Shown here: positions 5,439 to 56,627 of the stretch, one piece after another | How the letters are laid out: every line of letters starts with the position of its first letter | How positions within the stretch are numbered: the stretch's first letter is position 1 | Made by a program: the position numbers and the translations under genes | Source: Ostreococcus lucimarinus | Lineage: Eukaryota | Direction: 5' to 3' (one strand) | Length of the DNA: 64,000 nt | NCBI GenBank assembly: GCA_000092065.1 | Contig: CP000585.1 | Notes under the pieces: model-generated | Database searches by the model: none | What the model was told of the DNA's origin: nothing | What the model saw: the letters and a program-made list of their open reading frames with translations, nothing else

Positions 5439-5713
5439 CATCACACAGCTGTACATCGCGCCGCACGCGTCATCGCGCGCGCTCGCATCGCTTCGATTCC
5501 GTCGTCGTCTCGCGTCGCGCTTCTTCCCCTCTCTCCCGCGTCCGCACACCGCGTCGTCGCGCGCGCGGGTCCGGGCGAATGCCCTCGCGAGGCGACTCCC
5601 GCTCGCCTCGCGCGTCTCCGCGCGCCGGCGCGACGTCTCGCTCGCCCCATCACGCGGCGAACGAGCGCGCGGATGGCGTTGATGTTGGTGTTGCGACGCC
5701 GCGTCCGGTGAAG

Positions 5714-9181: not shown

Positions 9182-9221
9182 GCGCAATAGCTAATTTAAT
9201 TCACATCTAGTCCTAGTAGCG

Positions 9222-33854: not shown

Positions 33855-34976
33855 TCAACGGCGAAGAATCTGCTTCAGCGCTTGGTCGATCCTCTCGTAC
33901 TTGAACTTATAACCCACATCAAGCGCGGTTTTGGGTTGGATTCTCTGCCCTTGAAGAACTAGAGTCGATCCTTCGCCGAGAACTGCGCGCAACGCGAAAT
34001 CTGGCACCGGCAACCAACTCGGTTTCCCTAAGGTCTCGCCGAGGGATTCGCACATCTCTCGCATGCGGACGGGCGTTGGCGCGACGCAATTCACCGGACC
34101 TTCAAGTTTTACGTTTGTCAAGCTCTCCATTATGATCCCCACCGCGTCGTCTCTATGAATCCAACTAAACCACTGCTGACCGTCGCCCAAGGGCCCGCCC
34201 ATGAACGCTTGGAAAGTCGGCACCATCTTCCCGAGCGCCCCACCATCTCGATCGAGCACAATCCCTAATCGCAGCAGCACCACTCTACAATCTTCAACCC
34301 CACTCGCGGTTTGTTCCCACGCCTGGCAGACTTGACTTAAATAGTCCGCGCCTGGCCCGCTCGCTTCGTCGTACGTATCTGTCTCACTCGTCCCGTAGTA
34401 CCCGATCGCCGAAGCGTTCACCAATACCTTAGGTCTCTTGGCGTCGTTTGTGATCGAATTCACGTGTTCGACGACCGCCTTGGTGGTTTTCACTCGGGAC
34501 GCCATGATTTCACCCTTCACCTTCGGGTCCCAGCGCGTGCTGATTGGTTCGCCAGCTAAATTCACCACGTGCGTCGCGCCGAGCAACCCGCGTCGCCACT
34601 TATCCGGAGACACAAACGCGACGTCGCCCTTTGGGAGATTTTGTGGAGAAAGCTTCGCGCGAGCGCGGTTGACGTCTCGCGTGAGCACTCGCACTTCGGC
34701 GCCCCGCTCGAGGAGCGTCTCCACTAGCTTGCTACCCACGAACCCGGTTGCGCCCGTGATGGCGACGATGAGCCGATCGTCGGACGACGCTACGGACAGG
34801 TCGTCGTCCACGCTCGCGGAAGGCGCTAGAGCGCCCCGACGTGCGCGCGTCGAGCGGAAAAGATGGCGACGACACGTCTTATCCACCGAACGGGACGGCG
34901 AGCGGAGGCGCGCGCAGGGCGTCGCATTGCTCGCCGGAGCACGATAAAACGCGTTACAAGTCACTGCTGACGTCAT
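33855..34976 (-). CDS. SDR39U1/YfcH-type NAD-dependent epimerase family protein (TIGR01777-like) with an N-terminal targeting-like presequence
   Basis: Rossmann start IVAITGATGFVGSKLVETLLERGAEVRVLTR, family core ...NLAGEPI..RW...K.EI..SRV..T..., and a C-terminal DUF1731-like QRIQPKTALDVGYKFKY. Real ATG at 34974-34976. Confidence 0.7.
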   Translation of the reverse strand: MTSAVTCNAFYRAPASNATPCARLRSPSRSVDKTCRRHLFRSTRARRGALAPSASVDDDLSVASSDDRLIVAITGATGFVGSKLVETLLERGAEVRVLTRDVNRARAKLSPQNLPKGDVAFVSPDKWRRGLLGATHVVNLAGEPISTRWDPKVKGEIMASRVKTTKAVVEHVNSITNDAKRPKVLVNASAIGYYGTSETDTYDEASGPGADYLSQVCQAWEQTASGVEDCRVVLLRLGIVLDRDGGALGKMVPTFQAFMGGPLGDGQQWFSWIHRDDAVGIIMESLTNVKLEGPVNCVAPTPVRMREMCESLGETLGKPSWLPVPDFALRAVLGEGSTLVLQGQRIQPKTALDVGYKFKYERIDQALKQILRR

Positions 34977-36610
34977 CTCGTGGTTTGAAGCTCGCGCCCG
35001 GTGCGCACCGCGTCGTCGACTGCGGCCTCACCAACGACGGCTTGACGTTTTTGCAGGAAACTATGCCGCCGAGCGGCGTCGGGCGTCAACCGTCGAGACG
35101 GATTCCAGTGCAGCGCTCGTAGTAGAAATGCGTTGAACCGATCGTCGTCGATATCGATGACTTTCGTGCGCTTGCTTCGCGGCTTGTGCTTTGAGGATGT
35201 CCGATCGCTACGTTTGTCGTCTCGTCGACTTCTCGCAAACGACGACTCGCACACATGAAAGTCGACTCGGCGATCGGAGTGTGCTGCCGAGCTAAGAATG
35301 CGGCGTGGAGGAGGCCCAATCCGCGAGGTGATCGCGCTTAACTGGCGTGCCTCATCGTCGCCCACAAATAAAGTTTTGCCAGTGGCAAGCTCGGCGAGAA
35401 CGCACGCCAAGCTCCATACGTCAATGGGATGGCCGTAATCGATTCCGAGCATGACTTCCGGAGCGCGGTAGAATCGGCTCTGAATGTACGTATACACTTG
35501 TTTTCCCTGAAAACACGCGCTTCCGAAGTCGATGAGTTTGACATCGAACGAGCCAGGATGTTCTAGCAAAATGTTTTCGGGTTTGATGTCACAGTGCACC
35601 ACTTGCATGTGTTTGAGGTACACGAGCGCATCCACCATTTGCCGAGCGATATGGCGGACGTGTTGAATATCTAACTTCGCGAACGCGCGGGCTTCCAAGA
35701 ACTCGTACAAGTTGATGTGAAGCAGCTCAAACACAACGCACAATCGACCGCGAAACTTTAAATGCTCGAACATCTTCACTACGCGACTCGAACCACCTTC
35801 GACACGTTTGAGCACCGAAACTTCCACGCGAGCTTGACTCGCAAATGTTTCGTCAGGAGAAATCAGTTTAAGTGCCACTTCGCGCTTATATTTATGGTCA
35901 AAGCAACGCACAACTTGACCGAAATTTCCCGCGCCGAGTGAATTGAACATTTCAAATCGAAACGCCACGTGCTCGCCCTTCCTGATGCGAAAGGCATCGT
36001 CCTCGTCACCACTGCTAGCACCGGAACCGTGCGATAGCGTTTGCGTGTCGTCTGAGAGATGTTCTAGAGTCGGCACGTACCACACATGTTTGTAACGCAA
36101 AATATCGTTTCGGTCCATCACTCGAAGCCGCTTCCAAAACTTCTGCATCGCTTCTACGATCGACATTCCGATCGAGTCTCCATGCCTGGACCTATGAGTT
36201 TCCGGTGTCTGTTGGGATTGGTATTTTCGCCTCGCCGTGCCAGGCCGGCCGGTGGCGCCCGCGCCGTGTCGTCGACTCGAGCGCGCGCTGAGCGGTGGTA
36301 TGGTTGGTGTGAACTTAGGGGTCATGGCCGTTTCGTACGACGATGTCTGCTGGACCACGCCGAAACAACCATTGCAAGTTCCATATTTGTCGTCGGTCAC
36401 TCTGGCGTTTGCGAGCGCGTGCGAACGTAAACGAGTTTGAGTCACGGTCGCAGTGGCAAGTCTTCTCGGTGGAAGTTCGGTCAACGCGTCCACGCGGCGA
36501 GGAGCCGTAGAAGGCATACGACATCCTTCGCCGCCCGGTTTAGCGACTGGGTCAATTGTGAGGGTTGGGAAAATGCGCCTACGATCGTTTGTCGCATCTC
36601 GAGTCCGCAT
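34973..36610 (-). CDS. DYRK-family dual-specificity protein kinase
   Basis: DYRK catalytic domain (FEMFNSLGAGNFGQVVRCFD...ALKLI..., HCDIKPENILL, DFGSAC, YIQSRFYRAPEV, DVWSLACVLAELATGKTLF) with the tail ...NPSRRLTPDAARRHSFL. Real ATG at 36608-36610. Its TGA stop (34973-34975) overlaps the ATG of the downstream epimerase gene. Confidence 0.8.
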   Translation of the reverse strand: MRTRDATNDRRRIFPTLTIDPVAKPGGEGCRMPSTAPRRVDALTELPPRRLATATVTQTRLRSHALANARVTDDKYGTCNGCFGVVQQTSSYETAMTPKFTPTIPPLSARSSRRHGAGATGRPGTARRKYQSQQTPETHRSRHGDSIGMSIVEAMQKFWKRLRVMDRNDILRYKHVWYVPTLEHLSDDTQTLSHGSGASSGDEDDAFRIRKGEHVAFRFEMFNSLGAGNFGQVVRCFDHKYKREVALKLISPDETFASQARVEVSVLKRVEGGSSRVVKMFEHLKFRGRLCVVFELLHINLYEFLEARAFAKLDIQHVRHIARQMVDALVYLKHMQVVHCDIKPENILLEHPGSFDVKLIDFGSACFQGKQVYTYIQSRFYRAPEVMLGIDYGHPIDVWSLACVLAELATGKTLFVGDDEARQLSAITSRIGPPPRRILSSAAHSDRRVDFHVCESSFARSRRDDKRSDRTSSKHKPRSKRTKVIDIDDDRFNAFLLRALHWNPSRRLTPDAARRHSFLQKRQAVVGEAAVDDAVRTGRELQTTR

Positions 36611-36743
36611 CGGCTTGTGAGGTTCGCGTTGGCCAAATATAGGTGGCAGCCAACAAGTAAACTGCTCATCTAATTTTCAAACCTTGATTTTCTAGCTAAC
36701 CACTCCGGAACACGTCCCGATCATCCTAACGTTATTTCCGACA

Positions 36744-37655
36744 CTATTTCTGCGCTTCCGCGCGTTTCTTTGCCTGTTCCAGCGCTTCTGTCAATTTCTT
36801 CGCGGCGGCAACTTCCTTCAGGAGTGCGAAGACCAACGGGATATAATTGTGCCTACGTCGTATATTATCGTTCCTCCATTCAGCCACTTTAGCCTCTTCG
36901 ACTTCTAATTCGCGCTGCAAATGCGCGATCTCATCCGCGGCGCCAGTGCTCGACGACCGTAGTTCCTCGAGTCGCTGTGAAATTGCGATTCTAGGATCCT
37001 TCGTAACAGCCATGAGATTAAACTTGATCTCATTCGACGCGAATGACGCGATCTTCCGTTGAATCGCCGGAACCGCTACGTCTAACCAATGCCCGTCGCC
37101 AAAGCTTCCGTGATTGATCGGCCCTCTCTGCAAACCATCGAGTTCGAAGACGGAACCGCCTCTTGGTACGTAGGCAACAAAGTGAAACACGTCGTCGTCC
37201 TCTTGCGCAGGCCTAGACTGCAAGACGATTGGTTCTGGACGCGCGAACGAGTTATGTGCGTCGCGAATGATGTCCGAGTTGGAGATACTCATCCCTTTCG
37301 TTTCAGCATCGAAGTCGAGGGTGAACTCCCTTAGCGTTTGGAGCGTCTCGCCCAACTCAACTTCTTGTTCGGCGTTCAACAACACGCTAAGCACCGCTTG
37401 CGTGGCGCACGCGTTGTGAATCACTTGCGACGCGAAGAACAAATCTTGCGGTGGGTTTTCATCGACCTCAACTGCGCTCGAGCTGTGACCGCCGCGCCAC
37501 TTGAACAAAAATATGAGTCCGTAGATTGGTTCGTTACGACGAAGTTCATCAACGTCTAGCGAGTAGAGTTCTGTGAATGCGACGCCACGCGCGCCGATTC
37601 GATGGACCAGCTCGCCGAAGACCCCGGGATCGCTCTCGATGAGGCACCAGTCCAT
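36744..37655 (-). CDS. UCHL5: Ubiquitin C-terminal hydrolase UCH-L5/UCH37 (peptidase C12)
   Basis: MDWCLIESDPGVFGELV...IFLFKW..., catalytic Cys region QVIHNACATQAVLSVLLN, His region HFVAYV, and a C-terminal KEKE/ULD-like helix. Confidence 0.85.
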   Translation of the reverse strand: MDWCLIESDPGVFGELVHRIGARGVAFTELYSLDVDELRRNEPIYGLIFLFKWRGGHSSSAVEVDENPPQDLFFASQVIHNACATQAVLSVLLNAEQEVELGETLQTLREFTLDFDAETKGMSISNSDIIRDAHNSFARPEPIVLQSRPAQEDDDVFHFVAYVPRGGSVFELDGLQRGPINHGSFGDGHWLDVAVPAIQRKIASFASNEIKFNLMAVTKDPRIAISQRLEELRSSSTGAADEIAHLQRELEVEEAKVAEWRNDNIRRRHNYIPLVFALLKEVAAAKKLTEALEQAKKRAEAQK

Positions 37656-37801
37656 CGAGTGCGCGCGCGTGAGTGTGCGGTTGAACTTCTTAGGGGTCGT
37701 GCTCGTCGGTGAAGGGCGAACGAACTTTATTCAATAAAGAGTTTGTATAATTACAGCAGTTGGCGTGCTAAAGTGCGCGCCGCGTTCGTCTTATCGCGAT
37801 A

Positions 37802-40800
37802 CTATTCCATGATGTCGTCGACAGCGCCACCGAAGCGGCCCCACAAACCAGATCGGCGAGCGACGGGCTGTTCGGGCTCTTTCTCAGGTTCATCATCGAG
37901 GACGCTCTCGTCGACGGATTCTCCGGGTGCAAGCGCACGGCTCTCGACGATTATTTCGTTGCCGTCAGAGTCATACTCGACGATTTCAAGAATCTCTTCC
38001 GTCTCTTCAAGGTAACCAGGTTCTTCTTCCTGCTCGCCGTCTTCACTCGGTTCATCTTCAACTTCTGTGTCGTAGGTCGTGGCGATCTCGACGCGCGAGC
38101 CATACCTGCGCTCCATCGATTCTTCCACGTCGTACACGACGGTGGGTTTGGATGTAGGTGAAGGCGCGCTTCGAATCGGTTCTACTGGCTCCGGCTCGGG
38201 TCGCTTTGGAATTTCCGGCATCTCGAACGTTGGCTCGTCGCCCAAGTCAAAGTTCACCGTGGTCGAACCGACGTTCGGATCTGCCATCTTTGGCTCGGGT
38301 CTAGCCATGAGCTTGTCCCGTTCCGATCTCAACTCGTTTAGCTCCGCCAGCTGAGATTTACAGGTTTCGTGACACTCATCGAGAAGCTTCTGCAGTTCTG
38401 CGGTGCCGTCGTCATGCGGCTGTGATTTCGCAAGCACCAATGCCCTCTTAAGCTCCGCGATCTCCACCTTGAGTGTGATTAGGAACTCTTCAGCGCCTTG
38501 AGCGCGTTTGTCATTCATTCTAGCCCAGTTCTCGGCGTACTCGACGGCCTCTTGGCTTGACTTGATCTCGTCTTCCAACGTGGTGACTTCTTCTCGCGTG
38601 GACGCGAGTTCGATTTCAAGGTCGTGAATTTTAGCCCGAGTTGCAGCCGAATCGCCTGTCGCACCAGCGGCTTCGAGCTTCGCGGCCGCAATAGCCTTTA
38701 CAGACTTCTCGCGTTCATCGCTCAATTCATCTTCGAGATCACTGATTCGCTCTTTGAGTGCAGCCAGCTTGCCACGCAAGTCTTCTTCGTACTCAATTCG
38801 CACATTCGAAAGCTCGCTGCGCAACTTCGTAATCTTCGCGTCGCTCGCCTTTTGGATGCGCTGACTTTCAAACATAAGTTCTTCTTGCTCGGCCGCGTAT
38901 TCTTGGACTTGCGCGCGAAGCTTAGCCAATTCAACTTCGGCGTCGTTTAACTGTTCTTGTGTACGTTCGAGCTTCCGCTGAATCAAGTCAGCATTTTGTC
39001 TGGCTTCAATCTGGAAGAAGTTGAACTCCTTCGTGATAAAGTCCTTGGCGACACGCAAACGTTCGAGCTCGGCGAGAGCCTCGTCGAGTTCCTCCTTGAG
39101 AGATACATTTTCGTCGTTCAGCTTCTTGCCTGCGCTGATGAGGTCGGCACTCTTTGAGCTCACTCGTTCGGCTTCAGCGCCGAGCTCATTCTGAGTGCTC
39201 TCGTACTCAGCCTTGAGTTCCTTCACCTGCAACTCAAGACGCTCAATGAGCGTGGTTTGCGAGGTGATCTTTAAATGCAGTTCTTTCTTCACGCGCATAG
39301 TTTCCTCTGAAGCAACATTCGTCGCAGTCATCGCGGCAGTTGCCTCACGTTCTCGCGAGGACAGCTTCTCGCGTAGCGCGTGGACTTCACGTTCTCGCTT
39401 GGTGCGCTCCGTTACGAGTTCTGTTTCAAGATGTTCAACCTTCGTTCTGAGCACGTGAATCTCTCGCAGAAGATCGGGGTCGTTGCTTGATGATGCTTGA
39501 GATTTATCCTTCGCACCTCGCTCGAGCTCGTCCAATCTAAGACGGAGTTTCATCATGTCAGAAACAGCGACGTCACGCGAATCCGTCATTTCAACAAGAT
39601 CGCCCTCGAGATCTTCGATGATTCTCGCATAATCCCGCGCCGCGTTTTCGCGATCCTTGATTTCTTTACCTATGGCGAAACTGTGATCGGAAATGATCTT
39701 TTCAACTGCCGCGGCATGTTTGCGCTCGATCGAGATGATTTCTTGCTCGAGCTCTGAGATGCGCTGTCGCAGCGTTTTCACGAGTTCATCGTTCACACCT
39801 GTATTTTTCCCCTTGACGCGTTCGGCATCACTCAACTGTCGACGCAGCAAATCAAGCTCTTTCTCCAAAAGTTCTTTTTCCGAAACATGCTCGGCGGATT
39901 TCGCTTTGAGCGCGTCCAGCTCAGACTGCAACGAGGGGATGATCGACTGTTTCGCTTTCAGCTCGGCGAGCTTTTCTTGCAAAGCGGCAAGTTTCGTCTC
40001 CAACATCTTTCGTTCCTCATCGGCATTTGCCGACGCAGGCACTTGCTTTCTCAGCTCGTCCAAATCTGCTTGCAAAGTATGAATTGTTCTTGTCGCAACT
40101 TCACCGTGCACCTTTAATTCCGTTTTGAGCGACCCTGCGAAAGAAGAAGCCAGAGACAAAAGTCTCTTGTTACGAACATCACGAATCGTGCATCGTAACA
40201 ACGCCGCCCAGCGTAATTGTGCGCGTTCGGACTTGTTAAGGCCATATTGCTTGCCCTCCATATCTGCAAGTCGCTTCGCTGCAGACGCTGCGTCGGCCAT
40301 CGCTCGAGATTGCAGATCGTTGAAATCTCGCTCGAGTCGCTTAATCTTTTCCTGAGCGGCAGCATTTGCCGACGCAGGCACTTGCTTTCTCAGCTCGTCC
40401 AAATCTGCTTGCAAAGACTGAATTGTTCTTGTCGCAACTTCACCGTGCACCTTTAATTCCGTTTTGAGCGACCCTGCGAAAGAAGAAGCCAGAGACAAAA
40501 GTCTCTTGTTACGAACATCACGAATCGTGCATCGTAACAACGCCGCCCAGCGTAATTGTGCGCGTTCGGACTTGTTAAGGCCATATTGCTTGCCCTCCAT
40601 ATCTGCAAGTCGCTTCGCTGCAGACGCTGCGTCGGCCATCGCTCGAGATTGCAGATCGTTGAAATCTCGCTCGAGTCGCTTAATCTTTTCCTGAGCGGCA
40701 GCTAGGCCAACGCTTTGCTCGCCACCAGTGAGAAGCATCTTCTCCAAATCAGAAATCGTCTCATCTCGCTGCCCGATGATAGCTTGAGACTTTGTCATCT

Positions 40801-43800
40801 CGTACGAAACTCGGATCTTTTCCTTTTCGAGCTGTGAGATCTTCAACTTGAGATTAATAATCTCCTCCTGCAACGTGCGCTCTCGCGCCTCTGAGGACGC
40901 TTCAGATTCAGTGGCACCGGCGAGGCGCTTCTGCATGCCGTCGAGCTTATCCTGTAACGAATGAATGGTGATCTGGGCGGTGTTTCTGTGCGCAACGAGT
41001 TCTCGCAATGTCGCCTTGCTGTGGCCGAGAGCAATATTAAGGAAACGTCGATGGCCTTCCTTCACTTGCAAGATGCGGCACGTCGTGCGCCAACGAAGCG
41101 CGGCACGTTCTGATTTCGTGTGCATCATTGCATCATCGTGCGTTCTCTCCAATGAGACACATCTCTTTCGTAAAACATCCAACTCCTGCTCAAGCCGCTG
41201 AGCGACGCGAGCAGCATCTTCTGCGTCTACAGCAGACTGAGCCTTGAAGTCCTCGTACTGCATTCGCAACTCAGACAACTCGCGACGCGTAGTAATGGCG
41301 TCTCCCGACATCGAAGACTTCGACTTCTCCAACTCTGTTTCATGCTCCAGTAATAGCCTTTCGAGCTCCTCAACTCTTGAATCGCGAAGTCCCAAAGTAC
41401 TAGCGTGACGGAACTTGAGCACAGTGAGTTCCTTCTTCTGAATTTGCACGAGATCGGCAATTTGCTGCTCAAAGTCGGCGTGCGCTTGCTCGGCGCGTTT
41501 CGCAGCGTCAGCGGCTTCAGCGCGCATGCGCTCTCTCAATTCTCCAAGTTGCTGCTCGAAGTTCGCCACCATAAGTTGGTATCGAGATTCAGAATCTTCA
41601 GCATCCGATGCTGCTTTCGCCTTGTGCCGAGCAGACAGACTTTCGAGTAAAGTCTTAAAGTTCGCCTGCGCTTCAAGTTCGCGTTCAGCCGCTTCATCCG
41701 CCGCCGCGCGCAGTTGTTGCTCGAAATCCGCTTGCGATTGCTGCGCGCGTGCTTCAGCGCTGTCAGCATCAGCTTTCATGCGCTTGCGTAAATCCTCGAG
41801 CTGCTTCTCGTACTCTTCCTTCATCTGCAGGAAACGAGCGTGTTCAAACGTTGCATCGGACTTTGACTTATTCTTCAATCGCTCCGCCAAGTCATCGAGC
41901 TGATTTTTGAAATCAACCTGCGCTTGGTGCTCGCGCGCAGCACTTTCATCTGCGTCTATACGTGCGCGTGTGCGAAGATCTTCGATTTGCTTGTCATAGT
42001 CGGATTTCATGCTTTGGGCTCGACTCTTCGCCTTTTCCGCGTCAAGCTTGAGTTGATTCTGGAGGTCGTCCAATTGCGCAACAAGGTTCGCCTTTTCGTC
42101 CTGAAGACGCTGCAACTCCGAAGAAGCGGTGGATTTCGTGGAATCCATCGAGGACTGTGCCTCTTGAAGCAAGAGTTCAAGCTCGGCGACGCGTGCGTCG
42201 CGCACGCGTACAGTCTCGTCGAGATCTTCGAGCGCCTTCAGCTTCGCTTTCACTTCAAGCATCTGGTCATTGAGCGAGCGAATCGTCTTGTCGGACGTCG
42301 CCGCCCAGCTGCGTGCCTCGACGAGCTCGGCGGACGTAAACGATTTTACGAGTGCGACATGACGCTGGTGCAACCTTCGTGCGCGCAAGACGCGGCACAT
42401 CCAGGACCAGCGCAACGACGTTCGTTGAGACAAAGCACGCGCTTCCGCGTCTACGAGAGCCTTTTCAGCGGCTGCAAGTTGCGAGCGGAGAGCATCACCG
42501 TCATTTGAAGCCGCGCTGGTCTTCAATGATAACCCTTCCAACTCGGCCCGCAGCGTCTCAATTGTGCTCGCCAACGTCAACTTTTCTTCGGAGGAAACTT
42601 TCAGTAACTCCTTCAGATCGCTAACAGACTTCTGAAGCGCGGTTATATCATCAGCCGCTCGACTGTTTTCACCCTTCGCCGCTTGCAAAGCAATTTTATA
42701 ACCATTGACATCTTTTTCGAGTTCAATGATTCGCGCGACTCGCTTTGCTTCTTCATCCGCGCTCCATTGTGCTTGGAGAGTTTCAATTTGGCTTCGCGAC
42801 TCGGCGAGCTCGCGGCGTAAAGTGATGACGTCCCCGGTAGAAGTAGACTTCAACGCCTCCCAATCGTTCTGTGATTCAAGTAACAGAGCCTCGAGTTCGT
42901 GAATGCGTTTGTCACGAAGTCCCATAGCACTCGCTTGACGGAACTTGACAACCGCAGAATCCTTCTTGTGAACTTCAGCGAGATCAGCCAGTTGTTGCTC
43001 GAAATCCGCTTGCGATTGCTGCGCGCGTGCTTCAGCGCTGTCAGCATCAGCTTTCATGCGCTTGCGTAAATCCTCGAGCTGCTTCTCGTACTCTTCCTTC
43101 ATCTGCAGGAAACGAGCGTGTTCAAACGTTGCATCGGACTTTGACTTATTCTTCAATCGCTCCGCCAAGTCATCGAGCTGATTTTTGAAATCAACCTGCG
43201 CTTGGTGCTCGCGCGCAGCACTTTCATCTGCGTCTATACGTGCGCGTGTGCGAAGATCTTCGATTTGCTTGTCATAGTCGGATTTCATGCTTTGGGCTCG
43301 ACTCTTCGCCTTTTCCGCGTCAAGCTTGAGTTGATTCTGGAGGTCGTCCAATTGCGCAACAAGGTTCGCCTTTTCGTCCTGAAGACGCTGCAACTCCGAA
43401 GAAGCGGTGGATTTCGTGGAATCCATCGAGGACTGTGCCTCTTGAAGCAAGAGTTCAAGCTCGGCGACGCGTGCGTCGCGCACGCGTACAGTCTCGTCGA
43501 GATCTTCGAGCGCCTTCAGCTTCGCTTTCACTTCAAGCATCTGGTCATTGAGCGAGCGAATCGTCTTGTCGGACGTCGCCGCCCAGCTGCGTGCCTCGAC
43601 GAGCTCGGCGGACGTAAACGATTTTACGAGTGCGACATGACGCTGGTGCAACCTTCGTGCGCGCAAGACGCGGCACATCCAGGACCAATGCAAAGCTGCG
43701 CGCTCTGACTTGGCTTGCACGAGCGCCTTTGCGCGCGTCGTGTTGGATTCGTCGAGCTGCTCGCGAAGAATTCTGAGCTCGCCGTGCAAGCGCGAGACTT

Positions 43801-46800
43801 GACCGGAGGATGAGCTCCTCGCTGACTCAAGTGAAGTTTCATATTCACTTATAGCGGTCTCCAGACGCTGGCGTTCGAGCTCAAGTTCATTGATACGGGC
43901 TTCCTTCTCCTCAATTTCATCCTTGTGCGTGTGACGCGCAGCAGTGAGAAGTTTTTCGTGCTCGTCGATGGAAGCTTCGAGGCGCTTGACGAGCGCTTCC
44001 AATTCAGTAATACGGCGCTGATCGACGTCCTTCTTCTTCAACGATTCAAATTTCGCGCGCAATTTTTCAACCTCGGACTTGTTCTTTTCATCCGTCTTTC
44101 GAGCTGACCTATTGGCATTGTCGAGTTTTTTCTCGAGATCACGTATCGTTTCTCGCAAGGCATCCGCTTCTCTTCTGGAAACCTTCACAGCTTCGTCATA
44201 CCGCTTTTTCGAATCCTTGTCCAGCGTGTCGAGATCCCTGTTCAGTTGCTTCGCGAGTTTACCACTCTCGGAGAGTTTCTCCTCCAAATCTTTGACTTTC
44301 ATCCGCGCTTGCGACTCATCCGAAGCCATCTTACCCTTTAACGTAGTGATTTCGTCTTGATGCGCTTCTTCCTTCTTCGCGGCGTCGTCAGCGCGTTGCT
44401 TCAGTTTGGCGTTGGATTCATTCAACGACGTAATCGTGCGCTGAGTGAACTCTACGTAGAGTTTATGATCAGCTCTCATGCCACGAGTGAAGTCCTTTGA
44501 GGTATCGAAGAACCTGTCATGACGATCTCGCTGTTTGACATTCGTAAGGAGTAGTCTCCATCTTGCCGCCGCGAGCTTCGCGGATGATGTCTCCTGGAGC
44601 CCGGCATAAAGTGAACTCGTTTCGTCGAGGCGGTTACGGAGCGTCGCGCACTCCGATCTCAATCGCGACTCTTCTGAGGAGAGTCGCGCTTTTGTTGATT
44701 CCGCGCTCGACTGGAGTTCTTTCATGCCATCCTCCAAGGAGGCGATGAGCTGTTGAAGCTCCTCAATTCGAGCTTCCGACGCCTTCTTTATCCCCAGATT
44801 CTTTGCGACTTCATTTTCGAGTTGCTTCTTAAGATTACGAATTTCGTCGTTCAGAGAGTTGATCGTTCGCTCGCTTTGCTTTTCAATTGAGGCCCGATTC
44901 TTTTCCGCTTCTTCAAACTGCTTCTTCATGACGTTCAAATTGTCATCGCGTCGCTTTCGCAACATCTTGAGCTCTTCGTCAACCTTTGATTTGCTCTTTT
45001 TACTTCCTTCCAGGTCATTCTTTAGCGCCGCAACCGTGTCACCGAGCGAACGAACCGTCTTTGTCGATGCCTCCGCGTGAAGACGGTATTCAGTCCTCAT
45101 CGACTTGACAAAGTCGCGAGCTGTGTGCGTAAATCGGATGCCACGATTTCTTAGACGAAGCTCGTTGGCCAACATCGACCAGCGAATACGGACACGATCC
45201 CTCTTCGAGGCTACGTGAGCTTCCGCTTCCGCTTTCCACGCGTCTCGGATGTCTTTGATTTCCTGCTCGAGGGAGCGAGAATATGCCGTCTTCGTTTCGT
45301 GTAACGAGTTCTGATAACTTTCGACCATACCTTCGAGCACCCCAATGCGCTCGTCGCGCGCCTTCATAGCGCCGTCGGTCTGGAACATTTCGCCTTGCAT
45401 CTGTTCGATTTGCGTCTCAAATTGCTTGGATTGCTTATGCATTTCCTTCAGGTCCGTCTTCGACTTTGCTATAGTACCTTCGAGCGACTTGTTCTTGCTT
45501 ACCATATCAGCGAGCTCCTTCTTTAGCGCTGCTATTGTGTCACCAAGCGAGCGAACTGTTTTTGTCGTGCCCTCGGCGTGAAGCCGATATTCAGTCTTCA
45601 TTGACTTGGCAAAGTCCTTTGAAGTATTCAGGAATCGAAGGTGTCGCTTACGCGTGCGAAGGAGCGAGCACAATGCAGTCCAGCGGCTCGTCGCGAGTTC
45701 ACTCTGCAAGACATCGATACGCTCTCGCAAAGTTGAAATTTCGCCTTCAAGTTCACGGGAATACCGCGTTTTTGTTTCGTGCAGAGATTCCTGATACTCA
45801 CTCACCATCTTTTCAAGCGCTTGAATACGATTATCGCGGGCGGCCAACGCAAGTTCATTATTGAATTTGAATGCGTCACTCTCACGGACTTCGTTCTTCA
45901 ATGCTGCCGCAAACTGTTTCGAATTCTGGAAGAATCGATTATGCCGAGCCTTGAATGTAAGGAAGCGCGCAAAGTGAGACCAACGAAGCGTGGCCAGCTT
46001 CGATCGATGCTCGCTGTCGCCTTCTGCAAGACGCTTTTCTAACTCGACAACACTTTCCGCCAGCGATTCTTTACTTGCCATCATATCGCTGAGGTCCTTT
46101 TCAAGCCTTTTGATCGTCTTGTCACTCTCACGGACTTCGTTCTTCAATGCTGCCGCAAACTGTTTCGAATTCTGGAAGAATCGATTATGCCGAGCCTTGA
46201 ATGTAAGGAAGCGCGCAAAGTGAGACCAACGAAGCGTGGCCAGCTTCGATCGATGCTCGCTGTCGCCTTCTGCAAGACGCTTTTCTAACTCGACAACACT
46301 TTCCGCCAGCGATTCTTTACTTGCCATCATATCGCTGAGGTCCTTTTCAAGCCTTTTGATCGTCTTGTCAAGGGACCGTATCGTTGCCGTCGCCGCGGCA
46401 GCGTGCTGCCTATATTCCTCCTTCATGGATCTGGAGAAGTCCTTTGAAACAGCGTAAAATCTGGCGTGCTTTTGAATGATTCGTGATTTGCTATACATCG
46501 CGGCCCATCGCAATCTTGCCCGTTCACTCCTTCCGTTCGCGATCGCTGAAGCGTGCGCAGCCTGTTCCGAGGTCAGCCTGCTTTGAAGGCGTGCAACTTC
46601 GCCCTCGAGGTCGCGGGAATACCTCGTCTTTGTTTCGTGCAATGAGGATTGATACTCCTGCAACATTCCTTCGAGGGTCACAATGCGCTTGTCTCGAACA
46701 TCCAAGCATTCCGCGTGATCTCCCCTGAGCTTCGCAATAATCGCTCGCAGTTCATCATTGCGCTTCGTGAGTTCGGCGTTTGTTGCTTCGGCTTTGTCTT

Positions 46801-49670
46801 GCAGAGACAAATATCTTCTGTTGATCGATTCTGTACCTTTCACGGCTGAATCCAGTGAACTACGCAACGTGTCGTTCGCTTGAGCCATGTCTCGCTCTCT
46901 GGTCGCCGAGAATTCTGCATTGACGTTGTACTGATGCTTGAGAACGCTCAATTCGTCAGCAAGTGCCAGTAATTCAGACTTAGCACTGTCGCGCGATGCC
47001 GTCATGTTAAGCAAATCATTCTGCAAAAATTCAACCTTTTGCTGCCATTCCTTGACGTTCGCTGCGTGACTTCCGCGAAGTTGTCTATCCCTGGCGTCGC
47101 TCTCACTCGTCTTAAAATCAAGCTGAAGTCTGAGTTCGGCGATTTGAGCCTGAAGCTGCTGCGCGCTCACATCAGCGGCGCGCGTCTCCACTGGCCGCAT
47201 CGATTCGACATGTTGAATCTTGATGTGCTTCTCTTCAAGAATCTGGCAGCGCTGCGTAACCTCACGAATCGATTTGGTAACTGAGACCTTGTGCTGCTCG
47301 GCCATCAAAGTCGACTTGGTGGATTCGGATACCGCAACTTCAAGCTGCTTGCTCTTAATATCGAGCCTGCTCAGATCCACGGATTGCGTGTTGATGATGT
47401 TGTAGGCTTCACGCAGCTTAGCGGCCTCGTTCTGCTTCACCAATGTGAATTCCTTGTCCTTTTCGCGCAGAAGTCGTCTGTACTTGGCGACATCTTCTTC
47501 ATTCTTCGCACGCAACTGCTTACACTGCTTCTCAAGCTGAGCCATTTTCAATTGATCCGCCTCGCTCATCGACGGCACCGCGGCTGTCTCGCCATCGGTT
47601 GCACGTACCGGATATTTTTTGGCAATTTCGTTCTCAAGCGCTTGAACTCGTCGCTGATCCTTCTCACGAAGCTCGCAGACAGTCTTCAATTCAGTCTCTG
47701 TGTTAGTGAGCTTTACGAGTAGAGCGTCGTACGCGTTCTTGAGGCTTGTTCCGCGAATGGACGCGCGCCATTTTGCAACACCGAGCGCGGCGCGACGGTC
47801 GGATAACTCGGCTGTTCTCGACTCGAGTTCGCGTTCAATGCCCGTGATTTGATCGCTAAGACTATCGATCTTCTCGTCTCGGCTACGAAGGTCACGAATG
47901 TACGACGCGTGATCCGTTTTCAATTCGAGGATTTCTGCATCTTTACTCTTTAGTGACGATTCGAGCAACCCCAAAGAGTCCGCAGCGGCTTGCTTCTGAC
48001 TCTCCATCGACGCTTGTGCGGATTTGAATGCCTCAGTGCTGGAGTGTTTCAACTCTTGGAGCGCAGCCTCACCGTCGGAGATCTGCTGTCGCAGTTGCGC
48101 AATGATAGTATTCGACTTGATGACGTGCGCGCTGTGCGCCTGTTGAGCCGCCGAGTGATCAGCGTCGAGTTTCTCCGACGCATCTCGAAGAGTCGCGATT
48201 TCCTTACGTAACTCATCGATCAACGCGGCGTTTCGCTCGTTGTCGCGGCTTTGTAACTCCTCTTTTGACTTGAGCTGCACTTGAGACTCAACTTCATCCT
48301 TCCGTAACTTTTCTATGGTGTCCAAATACTCAAGCATGCGCGTCTTGAGCGCAAAGTTTTGCATTCGCGAAGTTAAGTGCGCGAACGTCAATCCGGTTCT
48401 CCGCTCGATCAACGTTCGTTCAACGTCCGGCACACCCTGATTGGAATTGTAGTGAAGTGTGTGACGGTCGCTTGTCATCAAGTCACGGATTTTCGCACGG
48501 CAAACTTGAAGTTCTTCCTCTATCAAATGCTTGCGGCCTCGGACACTTTCTTCGCGCGATTCCGCTTTGGACAAGAGACGCATCAGTCGCGAAATCTCGG
48601 CGCGTAGATTCGTCCGATCCGTGTCAAACTTAGTGCGATCTCGCTTGCGCGACTTTTCACTCTGCGTGATCTTCGTGCGAATAATGGTCGTCTCGCGTAC
48701 GTGCGACTCAATGCTCTCCTTCAACTTGCGCTCAATCACCGTCGTCGTGCTCTGCGACTGCTCCAACTCCTTCGTTAGAAGCTTGATTTCTGAGGTGAGC
48801 TTCTTCGAAGTGGTTTGAAGTTCTTTCGTCGCGCTGTCGCGCTCGCCCGTCACAGCGTTGATCCGCACTCTTAAAGCATTGAGTTCATCCTTCAGGCGAT
48901 CGACTTCTTCGGACTTGCCATCGAGGCTCTTCTTGAGAGCAGCGTTTTCGATTTCAAGTTTGTGTTTGTCATCTTCCAACTTCGCGAAGGCCTCGTTGGT
49001 TGATATAGAGATGTTAATCGACGACTTGATGTCATACGAGCTCTTTAACTCGATTTCAAGCTTCGAAATGCGCTCCTGCGCGTTCGCGTTGATTTTCTCG
49101 AGCTCGATGATGTCCTTCTTCAACTTGGCGTTCAAGTCGTCGAGTTGATCGCGCTTGCGGCGTTCGTCGAGCGCATTTTGCTTAGTCACTCGATTCGCGG
49201 CCTCAATAGCAGCCTCGAGAGAGCGCTTTGCCTTTACTCGATCCTTCTCCGCGTTTGCAGTCAGTTCTTGAATCTTCTTTTCCATATGTGCCTTGAGGTC
49301 GTTCAACTCTTGCTCGAGCGCGGCCTTCGCCGAACGCTCCTCGCCGAGCCAGCGCGTGTGCTCCTCGAGCGCGGCTTCTGCGGTCGCGCGTCGCTTGTGA
49401 CAGTCGCCACAATCATTGCGCTCTGCACGAAGCGCTTCTTCTGCACGTAACGCTCGAACGCGCCAACTATCATCGACAGTCTTGACTCCGCCGTCTGTGC
49501 CTCGCCATGCTTCGAGCAGGGCAAGCGGTTCAACACGAAAACTCACCCCCATGGGGTTATCGACGCGTTTAATGAGCGGACTCGTGCTCAACTCGGGTTC
49601 ATCGTGCACGTCAGACCCATTCGTTAACCCATCCAACAGTCGAGAGATGGCGCTTGCGGAATCTTCTTTT

Positions 49671-49711
<41 letters not shown>

Positions 49712-49981
49712 TGCCTTGGGCTTGGGCTTCTCTCTCTTCGGCCTTGGCGACGGCGAGCGCCTCTCTCTCGCCTCGCGCGGCCGATTTATGAAATCATCCC
49801 GACTTTGTCTGGTATCGACCCCCAAAAGCATCCCTTTGAAGAAATTCACTGATTTCCCGTTCGCCTCCCCGTTCTTGGCCCCCGTCCTCGTCTTACCGTC
49901 CGTCGGCGGAAGTTCGCACCCTTCGCCGCCGAATCGGCACTCTGCGCGCGCGCGAGCGATCATCGCACCATCGTCAATCAT
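37802..49981 (-). CDS. Giant single-exon gene encoding a roughly 4059-aa coiled-coil protein. The N-terminus has a 12-residue poly-Pro run. The body is highly repetitive: at least 12 copies of a roughly 60-aa 'SERAxLRW..(L)..R..R(F/L)F.TSKDF..SM..EY.LH.E...KT(I/V)RSL' module separated by heptad coiled coil, with three exact internal tandem duplications.
   Basis: Uninterrupted 12.2-kb ORF. The ORF-track start at 49987 is TTG; the first ATG is at 49979-49981. Identical plus-strand shadow ORFs (40125..40355 = 40464..40694; 41924..~42400 = 43202..~43690; 45990..46223 ≈ 46236..46457) reveal tandem duplications of 339 bp, 1278 bp and 246 bp. The C-terminus is acidic (DEPSEDGEQEEEPGYLEETEE). Confidence 0.7.
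49693..49731. repeat. (GGC)n trinucleotide microsatellite (about 13 units) encoding poly-Pro on the minus strand within the giant gene's N-terminal region
   Basis: ccggcggcggcggcggcggcggcggcggcggcggcggcg. Confidence 0.7.
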
Positions 49982-50808
49982 CGTCAATCGCGGTCATCGC
50001 GCGCGTTCCGATTCGCGCGCGTTCGCCTCGCCTTCGCTCGCCTCGCCTCGCCTCGCCCGCCGCGTTCAACCGCACGTACTCGCCAACCATTCAAATTTAT
50101 CGCTCCGCATCGACGCCAACGTCTCATCCGACCCCTTCGTCGTCCTCGCCCAATCCTCGCGTCCGATCGGCGTCGTCGGTCGCGCGCTCATCGCGCCTCG
50201 ATCGCCTCCGCGCCGGTCTCACGCGCGCGAACGCGACGCGATTCGAACGTTCGTTGATTCGCAATCGCAATCGCGATTCGTTCCGTGGGACGACCGTCCG
50301 CGCGGTCTCGTTCGCGTCGTTCGCGTTCGCTCGCGGTGCGCGCGCGCGTGCGTTCGCTCGCGCTCGCGCTCGCGCTCGCGCTCGCGTCGACGGCGCCGAA
50401 CACTGCCGCGCGCGCGCCTTCGGAATTGAATTCCCGAATCGAGGCCGACGCGTCATCCTCGCGCTCGACGAGTCACGACCCGTCGCGAGTGGATTTCTCA
50501 TAATACACACACGGACCGTCGCCGCCGCGGCGCCGCGCGAAGGGTCGGTCGCGCGAGTGCGCGGCGCGGACCTCGCGCGCGCGTCGAGCGACGCGTTCGC
50601 GCGCGCGCGGATCGACGCGCGCGAGCGCCCGAAGCGTCCGCGCGGACGCGCGACGGCGTCGACGCGAAAAAGCGGCGACGCGCGGTGGAATCGCGACGAA
50701 AGGACGCCGAACGGACGGACGCGGAGAATCGAACGAGCGACGGCGTGACGCGCGAGCGGACGCGCGCGCGCGCGAGTGGACGCGCGTCGGACGCGAGCGT
50801 CGAAGACG
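49982..50808. promoter_or_regulatory. Roughly 0.8-kb CGCG-rich head-to-head spacer between the giant coiled-coil gene (-) and the ACT-kinase gene (+), containing (CGCCTCG)n at about 50030-50060 and (GCTCGC)n at about 50354-50392
   Basis: Divergent start codons at 49981 and 50809. Internal ORFs are R/A-rich GC artefacts. Confidence 0.3.
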
Positions 50809-52536
50809 ATGAGTCGGCAGAGAGAGTCGAAGGAGGAAGTCGCGCGACGAGCGTTGGCGGAGTTTAGTTCGCAGATCGAAGAGGTTACGCGGAGCTCGGG
50901 GGACGCGACGACGAGGGCGCGGGTGGAGCGACATCTGACGCGATTGCCGAGGCAGTACTCGCTGGACGTGAACTATCTTGAGGATATTCTCGCGCACGCG
51001 GATATTCTGGATAAGGCGGCGACGGATGATCGCGAAGGGACGGGGGGGCGGAGGTCGGGGGTATGGTGCACGTGTCGCGAGGTCGACGTGTCGAGAAAGA
51101 ATGCAGAGGTCGTCGACGCCATGGATGCCGACGATTCGACGTCGATGGATCATAACTCGCGCGGCGTGGATATTCTACGTCATGGAAGTGGGTACGGGGG
51201 ATCACACAGCGGGTCGACGAGACCCAATTTGCGCGCGCCGACGTTTGGTTCGAGCTTGACGTTGACGATGCTCGGCAGTACGGCGGATCCTCGACAGGTG
51301 GGGATGTACGAGATCGCGGTGAGCGCGGGGAACAAACCACGTTTACTCTCGCGCGTGTCCGCCGTTTTATTCGACGTTGGGTTGAACATTGCCGAAGCGC
51401 ACGTTTTTTGCACCGACGATGGTTACGCGTTGGATATTTTCATAGTCACGGGTTGGCGACAAGGAGACGCGGCCTCGGTGCAATCAGCCGTACAGACAGC
51501 ATTAGATGCCGCGGACTTTAGCGATTTACCGGCATCTTCGAAAGGAACGAACGCGATCACCTCCAGTCAAGGATCTGAGGGCAGGATGTCGAACCCCTCT
51601 GGCGATAGGTCAAACTCAGATTCCATCTCCATAGACGGCGGCGAATGGGAACTCACTGAAAAACAGCTCGTGTTTAACGAAAAGATCGCTAGTGGAGCGT
51701 TTGGGCTTTTGTATAGGGGGAGCTACTGCGGCCAAGAGGTGGCCATCAAAGTCCTGAAGAGCAACGCCGCGGAGGGCTCGGGGGCCGAGACGTTGCGCGA
51801 ATTCGCGCAAGAGCTCAACATTTTGCGACGTGTTCATCACAAGAACATCATACAGCTCATCGGAGCGTTGACAAAGCAAAAAACGATGTGTCTAGTCACC
51901 GAATTCATGCACGGTGGGAACCTTCTGCAGTACGTGCAAGAGCACGCGCTCAAGCTTCCCGAGCTCATTCGGTATTCTCTAGGAGTCGCCATGGGTTTGG
52001 ATTACTTGCACAAGATTAACATCATCCATCGCGACATCAAGACGGCGAACTTACTTTTGGATGAAAATAACGCGGTGAAGATCGCAGACTTTGGCGTCGC
52101 GCGCATCCAGCCCACGGATGGGTCAACCATGACGGCGGAAACCGGCACTTACCGATGGATGGCGCCCGAAGTCATCGCGCATCAATTCTATAACGAGAAA
52201 GCTGACGTGTACTCGTACGGTATCATGGTTTGGGAGCTCGTGAGTGGCGGCGAAGTACCTTATCCCGGCTACACCCCCTTACAAGCCGCTGTCGGCGTCG
52301 TGCAGCGCGGGTTGCGACCGACGATTGCTCCGTCGTGCCACGCCGTCATCGCGCAAGTGATGCAGTACTGCTGGCTCGTCGACCCCAACGCCCGCCCTGG
52401 TTTCGAGCAAATCATCTCGTTGCTAAAGCACGTCGACGTTCCGCGCGAACAAGAGGGCAAGCACGGGTTTTTCGATCGTTTGAGATCGGTGAGCTTCAAG
52501 TCAAAGAAAAAGGAAGCACAAACGCGCAGCGGTTGA
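50809..52536 (+). CDS. Plant STY-type serine/threonine/tyrosine protein kinase with N-terminal ACT domain (TKL group)
   Basis: ACT region (MYEIAVSAGNKPRLLSRVSAVLFDVGLNIAEAHVFCTDDGYALDIFIV) then the kinase (GAFGLLYRGSYCGQEVAIKVLK, HRDIKTANLLLD, DFGVAR, GTYRWMAPEV). First ATG at 50809 (the ORF-track start at 50776 is GTG). Confidence 0.8.
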   Translation: MSRQRESKEEVARRALAEFSSQIEEVTRSSGDATTRARVERHLTRLPRQYSLDVNYLEDILAHADILDKAATDDREGTGGRRSGVWCTCREVDVSRKNAEVVDAMDADDSTSMDHNSRGVDILRHGSGYGGSHSGSTRPNLRAPTFGSSLTLTMLGSTADPRQVGMYEIAVSAGNKPRLLSRVSAVLFDVGLNIAEAHVFCTDDGYALDIFIVTGWRQGDAASVQSAVQTALDAADFSDLPASSKGTNAITSSQGSEGRMSNPSGDRSNSDSISIDGGEWELTEKQLVFNEKIASGAFGLLYRGSYCGQEVAIKVLKSNAAEGSGAETLREFAQELNILRRVHHKNIIQLIGALTKQKTMCLVTEFMHGGNLLQYVQEHALKLPELIRYSLGVAMGLDYLHKINIIHRDIKTANLLLDENNAVKIADFGVARIQPTDGSTMTAETGTYRWMAPEVIAHQFYNEKADVYSYGIMVWELVSGGEVPYPGYTPLQAAVGVVQRGLRPTIAPSCHAVIAQVMQYCWLVDPNARPGFEQIISLLKHVDVPREQEGKHGFFDRLRSVSFKSKKKEAQTRSG

Positions 52537-56100: not shown

Positions 56101-56627
56101 CTCTAATGGCGATGGTGGAATGGGCGAGCTTGGGCGAAGAACGTATAACGGAGGACAACGCGCCGTGGGAGGCTATGGAACTTGTTCATAATCTCGTCTC
56201 CAGTCGACGCATGAAGCGCTCGGAAGTTCTTAGGCGCCATCTCGCCGGTGGGCTCTTCGGTCGCTGCATCTTGGCCGTGGTTAAACTCGTTCCACACATT
56301 CCCAGTTTTCAAGGAATGATCTTGGGAACGCTTTGGCAGCTCATGCGTGCCTCTGGTTACGATGCGACGCTGCAAAACGCCCTCGTCGCTGACGGCATCA
56401 TCCGCCACATCCTGGACTGCAAATCGTACGCCAAACAAAACAGTGAAGTCGCGCGCGTCTTCTGCGGCTGCGCTCTCGCGCTCGCCATGAACAACGAGCC
56501 GGTGCAAAAGCAAATGTTTGACAAAAAGTGGCCCGCGCGCATCGTCAAAATTTTAAGCCTTCACCAGGCGATCGATTACAAAGGCGAGTTCACCACGCTC
56601 AACGACTGGCTGTCGTCGAATGCGTAG
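53136..56627 (+). CDS. Large membrane/secreted protein with a thrombospondin type-1 repeat (TSP1) and Cys-rich region, several hydrophobic segments, a central E/R/K coiled coil and an armadillo/HEAT-like C-terminal region
   Basis: TSP1 motif SAWGDWTKCSMQCGSGFRVRVNHCGKKQYERCVG followed by CDGVCDSG..CNGMCGG..CAVCGG..CDGKCFSG (Cys-rich). Hydrophobic stretches VYAMLLVVVVGY, LAVLRVVAFAIRFVSATVTF, LYGVIVVVSPFILQFL. Coiled coil at 55000-55580. ATG at 53136. Confidence 0.6.
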   Translation: MDVSVFATIDARSGDGGDAGAATRALAVVDDRADATDARRARGVAMTRGGALWSMTQVYAMLLVVVVGYNATASAFRGRRLDLSPEGMMLAGGVDPATVARYNATHGAAFGYGANAQRTSAVATRWRHVTRYAIRGSFNAAAGAAVGAVSQSARLARGSVRLLVPALERLGLGAIVDAVAIVSSTATSSVRNMVWLVMFASTPVVDFTLLPLYDFVLDGLEPLYQTFFTGTMDFFEDMTFNLEQNLATVLDARLLSVIRRPMRIFLNPFKWPRALYDAFIRPAYEFCAYPELFDALDEPVRPIVKRTYGDRCRASAWGDWTKCSMQCGSGFRVRVNHCGKKQYERCVGAGVVGCDGVCDSGLRTDCNGMCGGKALLDKCAVCGGNNAAIGCDGKCFSGMREDTVGNCCHAATITASGMCGEGDNLPAHLKAAAAAARAKATSAKKNVSLVRRFINFVKATLRFALKAVLAVLRVVAFAIRFVSATVTFTLHTLFSSASLKLVGTLTACYMAIGVVDKKAQKNVGQFIREVVPFMDEDAKDESRVVGAFSKAQAAKTPKEKIEVFVKDLIESFKRAGDVPGSIAHYLSWLCKRLYGVIVVVSPFILQFLRDASYENVVSARAQMAKKHEEAENIKRQNEELARRIEQEVRADEERERLMSEAAKVREEAAKAEREAAEREQARQEEMARLTEAEAQAKTQLEEERKRATNILEQERAQAKARLAAEEARLKEEAERIKREAALKQAELERERQAERERLVREEAELKERLAEEEAKAKSHRFDEEEALKVRLAELEERMKERSDVIKRLEAADVEVKKAEVSQMTNRATSAAVRLETAENELDSMAKRIITFEKANMGKKYALQSKRAMADAKEYCGLLSDFFVRNDEHLKAEEELSIITKYRDLSNDAPAALVARLEDVSEVPIAISKRFNFLLKYRARRNAIIVLSKLSARHPEDAVRRKCFAALNKITRSSTFGLIVSARCAALPNALMAMVEWASLGEERITEDNAPWEAMELVHNLVSSRRMKRSEVLRRHLAGGLFGRCILAVVKLVPHIPSFQGMILGTLWQLMRASGYDATLQNALVADGIIRHILDCKSYAKQNSEVARVFCGCALALAMNNEPVQKQMFDKKWPARIVKILSLHQAIDYKGEFTTLNDWLSSNA

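Follow-up and report, generated by a model that had tools for sequence, protein, structure and literature searches.

The 64,000-nucleotide stretch of DNA analysed here (the window), part of contig CP000585.1 of Ostreococcus lucimarinus, carries on its minus strand, at 37802-49981, a giant open reading frame (ORF) which represents a real nuclear gene of Ostreococcus lucimarinus CCE9901, coding for protein in a single exon. Comparison with related sequences and structure prediction lead us to favour, on balance, the view that its product is a structural coiled-coil rod specific to Ostreococcus, with periodic docking sites formed by a module around an invariant tryptophan (the W module), set in an evolving repeat array. 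Ostreococcus lucimarinus is among the smallest free-living eukaryotes and the Ostreococcus genome is highly compact. That 12 kb of such a genome is given to one genus-specific protein, kept intact in several lineages, suggests a structural role in a minimal cell; if the rod were merely another lineage-specific coiled-coil protein, the interest would be modest.

An intact gene for a predicted three-part coiled-coil protein

The frame opens with an ATG at 49981, closes with a stop at 37802-37804 and has 4059 codons with no internal stops. The original prediction, made from the sequence alone, had described a 12.2-kb intronless gene for a 4059-residue protein, and this description holds, a single open frame running from the first ATG; the three example peptides that it quoted were all located in the translation.

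37802..49981 (minus strand): complete single-exon coding sequence, 4059 amino acids (aa) plus stop; uninterrupted ORF, with the intact version in L005 and the codon comparison with L003 given below

Other assemblies carry the same gene. An environmental scaffold (L005), 99.85% identical, encodes the protein intact at 3864 aa (P0154), and the UCH-L5 and kinase genes adjoin it there too. Compared with L003 over 3937 codons, the ratio of nonsynonymous to synonymous substitution rates (dN/dS) is 0.23 with a dS of 0.053, which on this sequence comparison indicates that the gene is under purifying selection. Two more divergent syntenic orthologues, in L006 (P0155; 42% identical overall and 53% over the C-terminal 800 aa) and in L004, adjoin the same UCH-L5, kinase and epimerase genes. 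On the long ENA contigs L003 (6000-17500) and L004 (5200-19500) the orthologue is split by frameshifts into many short ORFs; because one of these contigs is labelled 'pilon' and intact alleles exist (as in L005, a short-read assembly of the species), the frameshifts are probably indel errors of long-read assembly rather than pseudogenisation.

The G+C content (GC) of the gene is 0.525 compared with 0.60 around it, owing to a composition rich in Lys, Glu, Ala and Leu. A foreign origin, considered on account of the low GC, was rejected, since the GC at third codon positions (0.586) is inside the range of the neighbouring genes.

As judged from its sequence and the models, the protein is made of three parts. 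It begins with a short N-terminus that is basic and rich in proline, continues through about 3,700 residues predicted to be α-helix with heptads, and ends in a disordered, acidic tail in which short motifs are invariant.

49517..49981 (minus): N-terminal non-helical region, aa 1-155, basic and Pro-rich with a P12 run; 24 of the 52 prolines of the protein fall in aa 25-152
49673..49710 (minus): (CGG)12.7 microsatellite coding the polyproline run, found with Tandem Repeats Finder (TRF)
38297..49474 (minus): predicted α-helical coiled-coil rod, ~aa 170-3895, from heptad periodicity, few prolines and the helices of AlphaFold2
38822..39076 (minus): most conserved block of the C-terminal rod, aa 3636-3720 (...RVAKDFITKEFNFFQIE..QRKLERTQEQLNDAEVELAKLRA...), nearly invariant in four Ostreococcus lineages
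38423..38560 (minus): conserved block, aa 3808-3853 (EYAENWA.MNDKRAQGAEEFL..LK.E...LK.AL), a run of invariant alignment columns
37805..38296 (minus): acidic, mostly disordered C-terminal tail; AlphaFold2 predicted local distance difference test (pLDDT) below 50 over most of it
37937..37996 (minus): EILEIVEYDSDGNEIIVESR, predicted β-hairpin in the tail, nearly invariant in four lineages; two strands, model residues 362-381, pLDDT 64-70

The N-terminus contains a basic cluster, RPKREKPKPK, and its polyproline run has 12 prolines in the window and 11 in the near-identical environmental allele P0154, and is therefore a length polymorphism of the (CGG) microsatellite. Only nine prolines occur across aa 153-3894, and the 2271 residues from 931 to 3201 have none. 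Of the 42-aa windows from aa 250 to aa 4000, 33% exceed the 95th percentile of shuffled sequences in heptad periodicity, where 5% would be expected. Together with the helices predicted by AlphaFold2 and the long proline-free run, this agrees with the heptad coiled-coil character originally proposed. The 124-aa composite unit described below was modelled as one continuous helix with a pLDDT of 95.7. The last 424 residues gave three long helices followed by the disordered acidic tail with its small β-hairpin, at a predicted template modelling score (pTM) of 0.24. Further conserved motifs in the tail are TVNFD.G..P.F..P and, at the extreme C-terminus, W.RFG.A.DDIME. At the 0.1485 nm per residue of coiled-coil geometry, a rod of ~3,780 residues would measure about 560 nm when fully extended, a length similar to the thickness of the cell. 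O. tauri measures 1.1-2.1 μm across and 0.5-0.8 μm in thickness (PMC1939878).

W modules and the roles they could serve

The central 2,200 residues form an array of super-repeats, each typically a segment with the motif RDxRI followed by a W module. There are 11 clear copies of the W module, which is ~75 aa long, and these comprise eight distinct modules and three recent duplicates. From 25 distinct modules of several lineages the consensus is KSERAxLRW..L...LR.R.RH.RF...SKDF..SMK.EY..H....TKTIRSL......LK..L. Each copy was matched by the module hidden Markov model (HMM; 97 bits for module 1 and 105 bits for module 4), and a profile built from three modules of another species matches all 11 with independent E-values of 1e-10 to 1e-30, so that the repeat is neither circular nor a chance pattern.

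47702..47812 (minus): degenerate W module (W738) without the RF/KDF part; conserved in L003 and L004, no match to the module HMM
46322..46546 (minus): W module 1, aa 1146-1220, W1159
46052..46264 (minus): W module 2, aa 1240-1310, W1252, first copy of the 246-bp duplication
45803..46018 (minus): W module 3, aa 1322-1393, W1334, second copy of the 246-bp duplication
45497..45715 (minus): W module 4, aa 1423-1495, W1434
44993..45223 (minus): W module 5, aa 1587-1663, W1601
44810..44929 (minus): half-module remnant, aa 1685-1724; HMM 14 bits, profile positions 34-74 only
44372..44596 (minus): W module 6, aa 1796-1870, W1808
43505..43726 (minus): W module 7, aa 2086-2159, W2099, WSWMCRVLR type, copy A
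42227..42445 (minus): W module 8, aa 2513-2585, W2525, WSWMCRVLR type, copy B
40904..41134 (minus): W module 9, aa 2950-3026, W2964
40364..40588 (minus): W module 10, aa 3132-3206, W3145, first copy of the 339-bp duplication
40025..40249 (minus): W module 11, aa 3245-3319, W3258, second copy of the 339-bp duplication
45722..45838 (minus): example of the second motif (RDNRIQALEKMVSEYQESLHETKTRYSRELE), from regular expression and alignment

An earlier count of at least 12 copies thus comes down to 11 and two remnants, the degenerate module at W738 and the half-module at aa 1685-1724. Spacing between the modules is irregular (82-439 aa), with heptad coiled coil between them. The second motif, RDxRI..LE.MV.EYQ.SLHETKT.YSR.LE, was located nine times by regular expression and alignment, with starts at aa 1096, 1382, 1542, 2026, 2168, 2356, 2594, 2866 and 3072, usually 40-100 residues ahead of a W module. 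From this recurrence it follows that the true unit is a super-repeat of variable length.

The module was unrecognised at the outset and profile searches bear this out, with no Pfam family, no PDB sequence and no unrelated protein among 1.84 billion representatives. For the whole protein (E≤1) nothing in Pfam rose above threshold, the output being coiled-coil noise with no Sfi1, IQ, Spectrin, PACT or GRIP; the sub-threshold matches to ATG16, TPR_MLP1_2 and Tropomyosin were rejected as compositional. When the nine composite units were searched singly (E≤10), no Sfi1, IQ or Spectrin was among the listed matches. A profile search of PDB sequences gave only coiled-coil noise at E≥0.1, and when the C-terminal model was compared with PDB structures by Foldseek no match fell below E=2, though fold matching is uninformative for a model that is mostly long helices with so low a pTM. 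The HMMER profile of the W module found nine matches among the representatives, eight of which are fragments or orthologues of the giant gene from marine metagenomes; the ninth, a bacterial LRR/FN3-type protein (P0161, E=1.7e-4), looked spurious when inspected and was set aside. Against 5.8 billion proteins, one query from the centre and two from the C-terminal part brought back only environmental Ostreococcus-like proteins, and no homologue labelled O. tauri, Bathycoccus or Micromonas appeared in these or in the module-profile search, a negative that absence, lack of annotation or extreme divergence could each explain. By these searches the protein is restricted to the genus, its recognisable relatives being found only in Ostreococcus-like sequences. 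Nothing relevant on a long coiled-coil protein of Ostreococcus was found in the literature.

Two properties of the W module lead us to read it as a docking site, namely that its conservation exceeds the heptad core and that it forms the most basic acid-free islands of the protein. Beyond heptad positions a and d, R15, F16, F23, E30 and S44 are conserved at b or c positions and H13 and T41 at g, which would provide an extra interaction surface. Eleven of the thirteen 21-aa windows with a net charge of at least +6 are W modules, whose islands reach +6 to +7; the longest acid-free runs of the protein also fall in the modules, while the rest is charge-balanced. A long coiled-coil rod of this kind could serve as a spacer or structural scaffold that is anchored by the non-helical region at either end; the W modules would then be periodic docking sites, used either by an acidic partner protein or by neighbouring rods that associate laterally. 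Long heptad periodicity, few helix breakers and predicted helix, the marks of the two-stranded coiled-coil rod class, are all present. Like giant scaffolds such as pericentrin/Spc110/Pcp1, golgins, rootletin, NuMA and plant CRWN/NMCP, the protein combines long heptad coiled coil with short non-helical ends bearing conserved motifs, and like them, fast-evolving and often lineage-specific as they are, it evolves quickly and is confined to one lineage. Unlike them it has no PACT, GRIP, GRAB or TMF domain by Pfam, and where golgins and other scaffolds may end in a transmembrane anchor its C-terminus is acidic and disordered without a hydrophobic stretch. In sequence and profile searches the super-repeat of W module and RDxRI segment has no counterpart in such scaffolds. 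An all-helical unit of about 105-125 aa with a conserved Trp also recalls the spectrin repeat, but that is a three-helix bundle, whereas the 124-aa unit comes out of AlphaFold2 as one straight helix, and there was no match to PF00435.

Several points weigh against this interpretation. Conservation on the non-core faces of the W module could also fit a three- or four-stranded assembly in place of a docking site. The AlphaFold2 models were made of monomers from shallow alignments (9 and 4 sequences), and the method tends to render such sequences as straight helix. Restriction to the genus means undetectable by HMMER profiles, which a highly diverged syntenic counterpart in Bathycoccus or Micromonas would escape. 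An exact look-up of the 4059-aa product in protein collections found it not on record, and no protein from NCBI or UniProt matching the giant ORF came from any search, though the annotated proteins of the flanking genes are present; the reference annotation may lack the gene or model it in another way.

It is rather unlikely, though deserving of consideration, that the W modules and RDxRI segments are instead self-association elements that set the stagger or register of side-by-side or antiparallel rods in a filament or paracrystalline fibre, by analogy with the assembly-competence regions of myosin rods or rootletin. Two distinct conserved segments do recur jointly, and the conserved face is wide, taking in c and g beside a and d; from +16 to +31 it shows a pair of parallel hydrophobic stripes, a pattern typical of three- or four-helix packing. 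Since the module occurs in no other protein of the 1.84e9 representatives, it is not a widely shared partner-recognition element, which would also suit self-association. A fixed axial stagger, however, would hardly tolerate either the irregular spacing of 82-439 aa or a copy number that varies between strains, and modules of such strong positive charge would repel one another unless paired with acidic segments.

Binding of an EF-hand protein, either the single centrin of O. lucimarinus or calmodulin, is a further proposal that we consider unlikely. On this view the rod would form a fibre decorated with centrin and responsive to calcium, acting in the manner of Sfi1 or an XPC-type target without homology to either. 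The invariant Trp stands at the head of an amphipathic helix with which each module opens; strongly basic, aromatic and free of acidic residues over about 20-25 residues, this helix resembles IQ and calmodulin-binding helices. O. lucimarinus retains one centrin although it appears to have no centrioles. An XPC/Rad4-like triad, W1xxΦ4xxxΦ8 with a basic residue beside the Trp and in the XPC/Rad4 orientation, is found in seven of the 11 modules (five of the eight distinct ones), and WRLLLTNV in W module 6 compares with WRLLLGAI at the Rad4 site of O. lucimarinus (PMC3871271). The triad is nevertheless not diagnostic, because it coincides with heptad a-d-a spacing and is expected wherever a coiled coil has Trp at a; it is missing from four of the 11 modules, and while XPC is a globular DNA-repair protein with a single C-terminal site, the triad here is part of a longer module and perhaps incidental. 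Conservation spans about 60-75 residues, far beyond an EF-hand target of ~20 aa. The W-module anchors (W1, 4, 8, 15 and 17, as read from the alignment) misfit the canonical 1-10, 1-14 and 1-16 classes of calmodulin targets. The IQ-like character that the original prediction attributed to the basic aromatic stretch was not recovered: neither Sfi1 nor IQ was among the Pfam matches listed for the composite units at E≤10, and the W module fits neither consensus pattern. The strict IQ consensus [FILV]Qxxx[RK]Gxxx[RK] has no match in the whole protein, where two loose matches lie outside the modules, and there was no Pfam match to PF00612.

The likeness to Sfi1 (PF08457) extends to a long, nearly all-helical protein with many repeats centred on a conserved Trp beside a basic residue, to a repeat number that varies by species, and to the presence in O. 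lucimarinus of centrin, the partner of Sfi1. In place of the algal triad L8xxxF4xxW1 upstream of the Trp (L...[FLW]..W as a regular expression, no match) the modules read KSERAxLRW, and in place of a contiguous period of ~33 aa they are ~75 aa long and 82-439 aa apart in heptad coiled coil. O. lucimarinus is reported to have a separate 1315-aa Sfi1 with 28 motifs and a single centrin (PMC3871271), and the giant protein was thereby ruled out as the Sfi1 orthologue. A flagellar-root or classical centrosomal role, as originally suggested, also seems unlikely, because Ostreococcus, a green alga without flagella, appears to have neither centrioles nor basal bodies (PMC3144413).

An improbable alternative has the basic modules attach to a polyanion instead of a protein fold, be it RNA, DNA or chromatin, the acidic tails of tubulin or an acidic membrane. 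The rod would on this view be a tether of many valences, perhaps within the nucleus or a minimal spindle. Eleven islands of net +6 to +7 per 21 aa without acidic residues would suit this, the N-terminal RPKREKPKPK could serve as a nuclear localisation signal, and cryo-tomograms of O. tauri show only one or two microtubules and no spindle, leaving segregation unexplained (PMC1939878). The invariant W, F16, F23, E30, T41 and S44 argue instead for stereospecific rather than purely electrostatic recognition, and Pfam detected no known DNA-, RNA- or microtubule-binding domain. More speculative by far, and very improbable as it stands, is a rod of ~0.5 μm, invented in Ostreococcus or diverged beyond recognition, whose eleven basic modules gather or space chromosomes, microtubules or single organelles and so offset the near-absent spindle and cytoskeleton; the hints in its favour are indirect, namely its size, the purifying selection on the gene, its confinement to Ostreococcus and the multivalent basic sites. 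The cytoskeleton and chromosome segregation of Ostreococcus are poorly understood (PMC1939878), and whichever role applies, the W module and the conserved C-terminal motifs offer handles for pull-downs and tagging.

Duplication and gene conversion in the array

Internal duplications were mapped in the window by self-BLASTN and TRF (no strand is assigned to them).

45875..46370: 246-bp unit in tandem, 2.0 copies, 100% identical; the junction shows a 4-bp microhomology (GTCA)
40023..40702: 339-bp tandem duplication, 2.0 copies, 99.4% identical
41711..42409: copy of the 699-bp repeat at the lower coordinates, which comes second in the protein, 100% identical to the other copy (self-BLASTN)
42989..43687: copy of the 699-bp repeat at the higher coordinates, which comes first in the protein, start-to-start offset 1278

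The offsets of all three are multiples of three and exactly one W module lies in each duplicated block. The copies of the 339-bp unit differ by two adjacent mismatches (40078-79 vs 40417-18) that change RTIQSL to RTIHTL. Three blocks identical at 100% had been predicted; three exist and the 246-bp one is identical, while the 339-bp one falls short of that. A supposed unit of 1278 bp proved to be the period (1.55 copies) of a duplicated length of 699 bp, and the positions first given for the 246-bp and 339-bp duplications were ~100 bp too high.

That these duplications are errors of the reference assembly and the true gene is ~3864 aa or shorter is the least probable of all the alternatives considered, even though L005 and L003, from the same species, have the 246-bp and 339-bp units as single copies. 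A 32-nt junction diagnostic of the tandem 246-bp unit was used to search JGI metagenome contigs and one contig matched, Ga0228649_1000084 (L007, 38 kb), which aligns to window positions 36394-47882. Over these 11,489 bp this independent contig is collinear with the window and 99.9% identical, with zero gaps and 11 mismatches, and carries all three duplications, so the suspicion of an assembly artefact, raised at the outset, does not hold. The copies of the 339-bp unit differ within the window, and both variants (QS and HT) occur elsewhere as single-copy alleles. Every assembly of the species has the 699-bp repeat (99.7% identity in L005, 100% in L007 and, over 343 bp, 96.5% in L003). Exact tandem duplications are often collapsed by short-read assemblers, which could explain L005. 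The single copies in L005 and L003 reflect either genuine copy-number polymorphism or such a collapse.

The very recent expansion first proposed applies to two of the three blocks. The 246-bp and 339-bp duplications, absent from L005 and L003 and present in L007, are recent and, as far as these alleles tell, apparently polymorphic in wild populations. At offset 82 of the 246-bp unit both copies in the window have G and both copies in L007 have C, and the single-copy alleles match the L007 variant (FLRFKAR, not FLTFKAR). For the 339-bp unit, QS is the allele of L003 and HT that of L005 and L007. The SNP shared between copies, taken with the QS and HT alleles elsewhere, thus points to ongoing gene conversion or recurrent duplication. 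The pair with the 1278-bp period has a different history. At each of the five loci examined, two WxWMCRVLR modules occupy collinear positions and their upstream flanks are unrelated; identity between the two copies of one genome is 100% in the window, L005 and L006, 97% in L003 and 79% in L004, whereas between lineages it is only 54-68%. Identity within lineages and divergence between them indicate an old duplication homogenised by gene conversion and not a recent expansion.

The divergent orthologues have near-identical internal duplications of their own, in L006 within 1865-5113 (614 bp at 99.5% and 463 bp at 99.1%) and in L004 at 9134-10455 and 16092-16332 (600 bp at 98.8% and 121 bp at 95%), so that turnover of repeats is a general property of the gene. 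The array changes through in-frame tandem duplication at short microhomologies and gene conversion between copies, which leaves copy number and sequence apparently polymorphic in natural populations while the reading frame is kept. The locus is in this respect a natural example of how a coding repeat array evolves by microhomology-bounded in-frame duplication and gene conversion.

Two antisense ORFs, 41924-42508 and 43202-43708 (plus strand; 194 and 168 aa), lie inside the giant gene over the two copies of the 699-bp repeat and are most likely meaningless by-products of it.

Neighbouring genes

The window is gene-dense with ~60% GC and intergenic gaps of only about 100-200 bp. Ten neighbouring ORFs were compared by exact sequence and four are identical to annotated proteins of O. 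lucimarinus CCE9901, namely the UCH-L5 gene listed here and those matching ABO96296.1, ABO96052.1 and ABO96042.1.

36744-37655 (minus strand): UCH-L5 gene, identical to ABO96298.1

The DYRK-like kinase ORF at 34973-36610 (minus strand) has 545 aa here, whereas most members of its cluster from other assemblies have 514, which suggests, from the sequences, another start codon or an N-terminal strain difference. Between the start of the giant gene and a divergent ACT-domain kinase gene, which begins within the ORF 50776-52536, is a gap of ~0.8 kb, and GC-rich short tandem repeats occupy 50023-50666 of it (TCGCC x8, CGCTCG x10 and, at 50550-50666, units of 22-41 bp). Another ORF, 5126-9181 (plus strand), encodes ~1,150 aa from its likely Met and is K/E/A-rich and coiled-coil-like, in a low-GC, A-skewed island; it has no Pfam domain and no W module. 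The ORF at 53136-56627 (plus strand; 1163 aa) is the one identical to ABO96052.1. It has no Pfam match at E≤1e-5, and some JGI records in its cluster are labelled 'KaiC/GvpD/RAD55 family RecA-like ATPase'.

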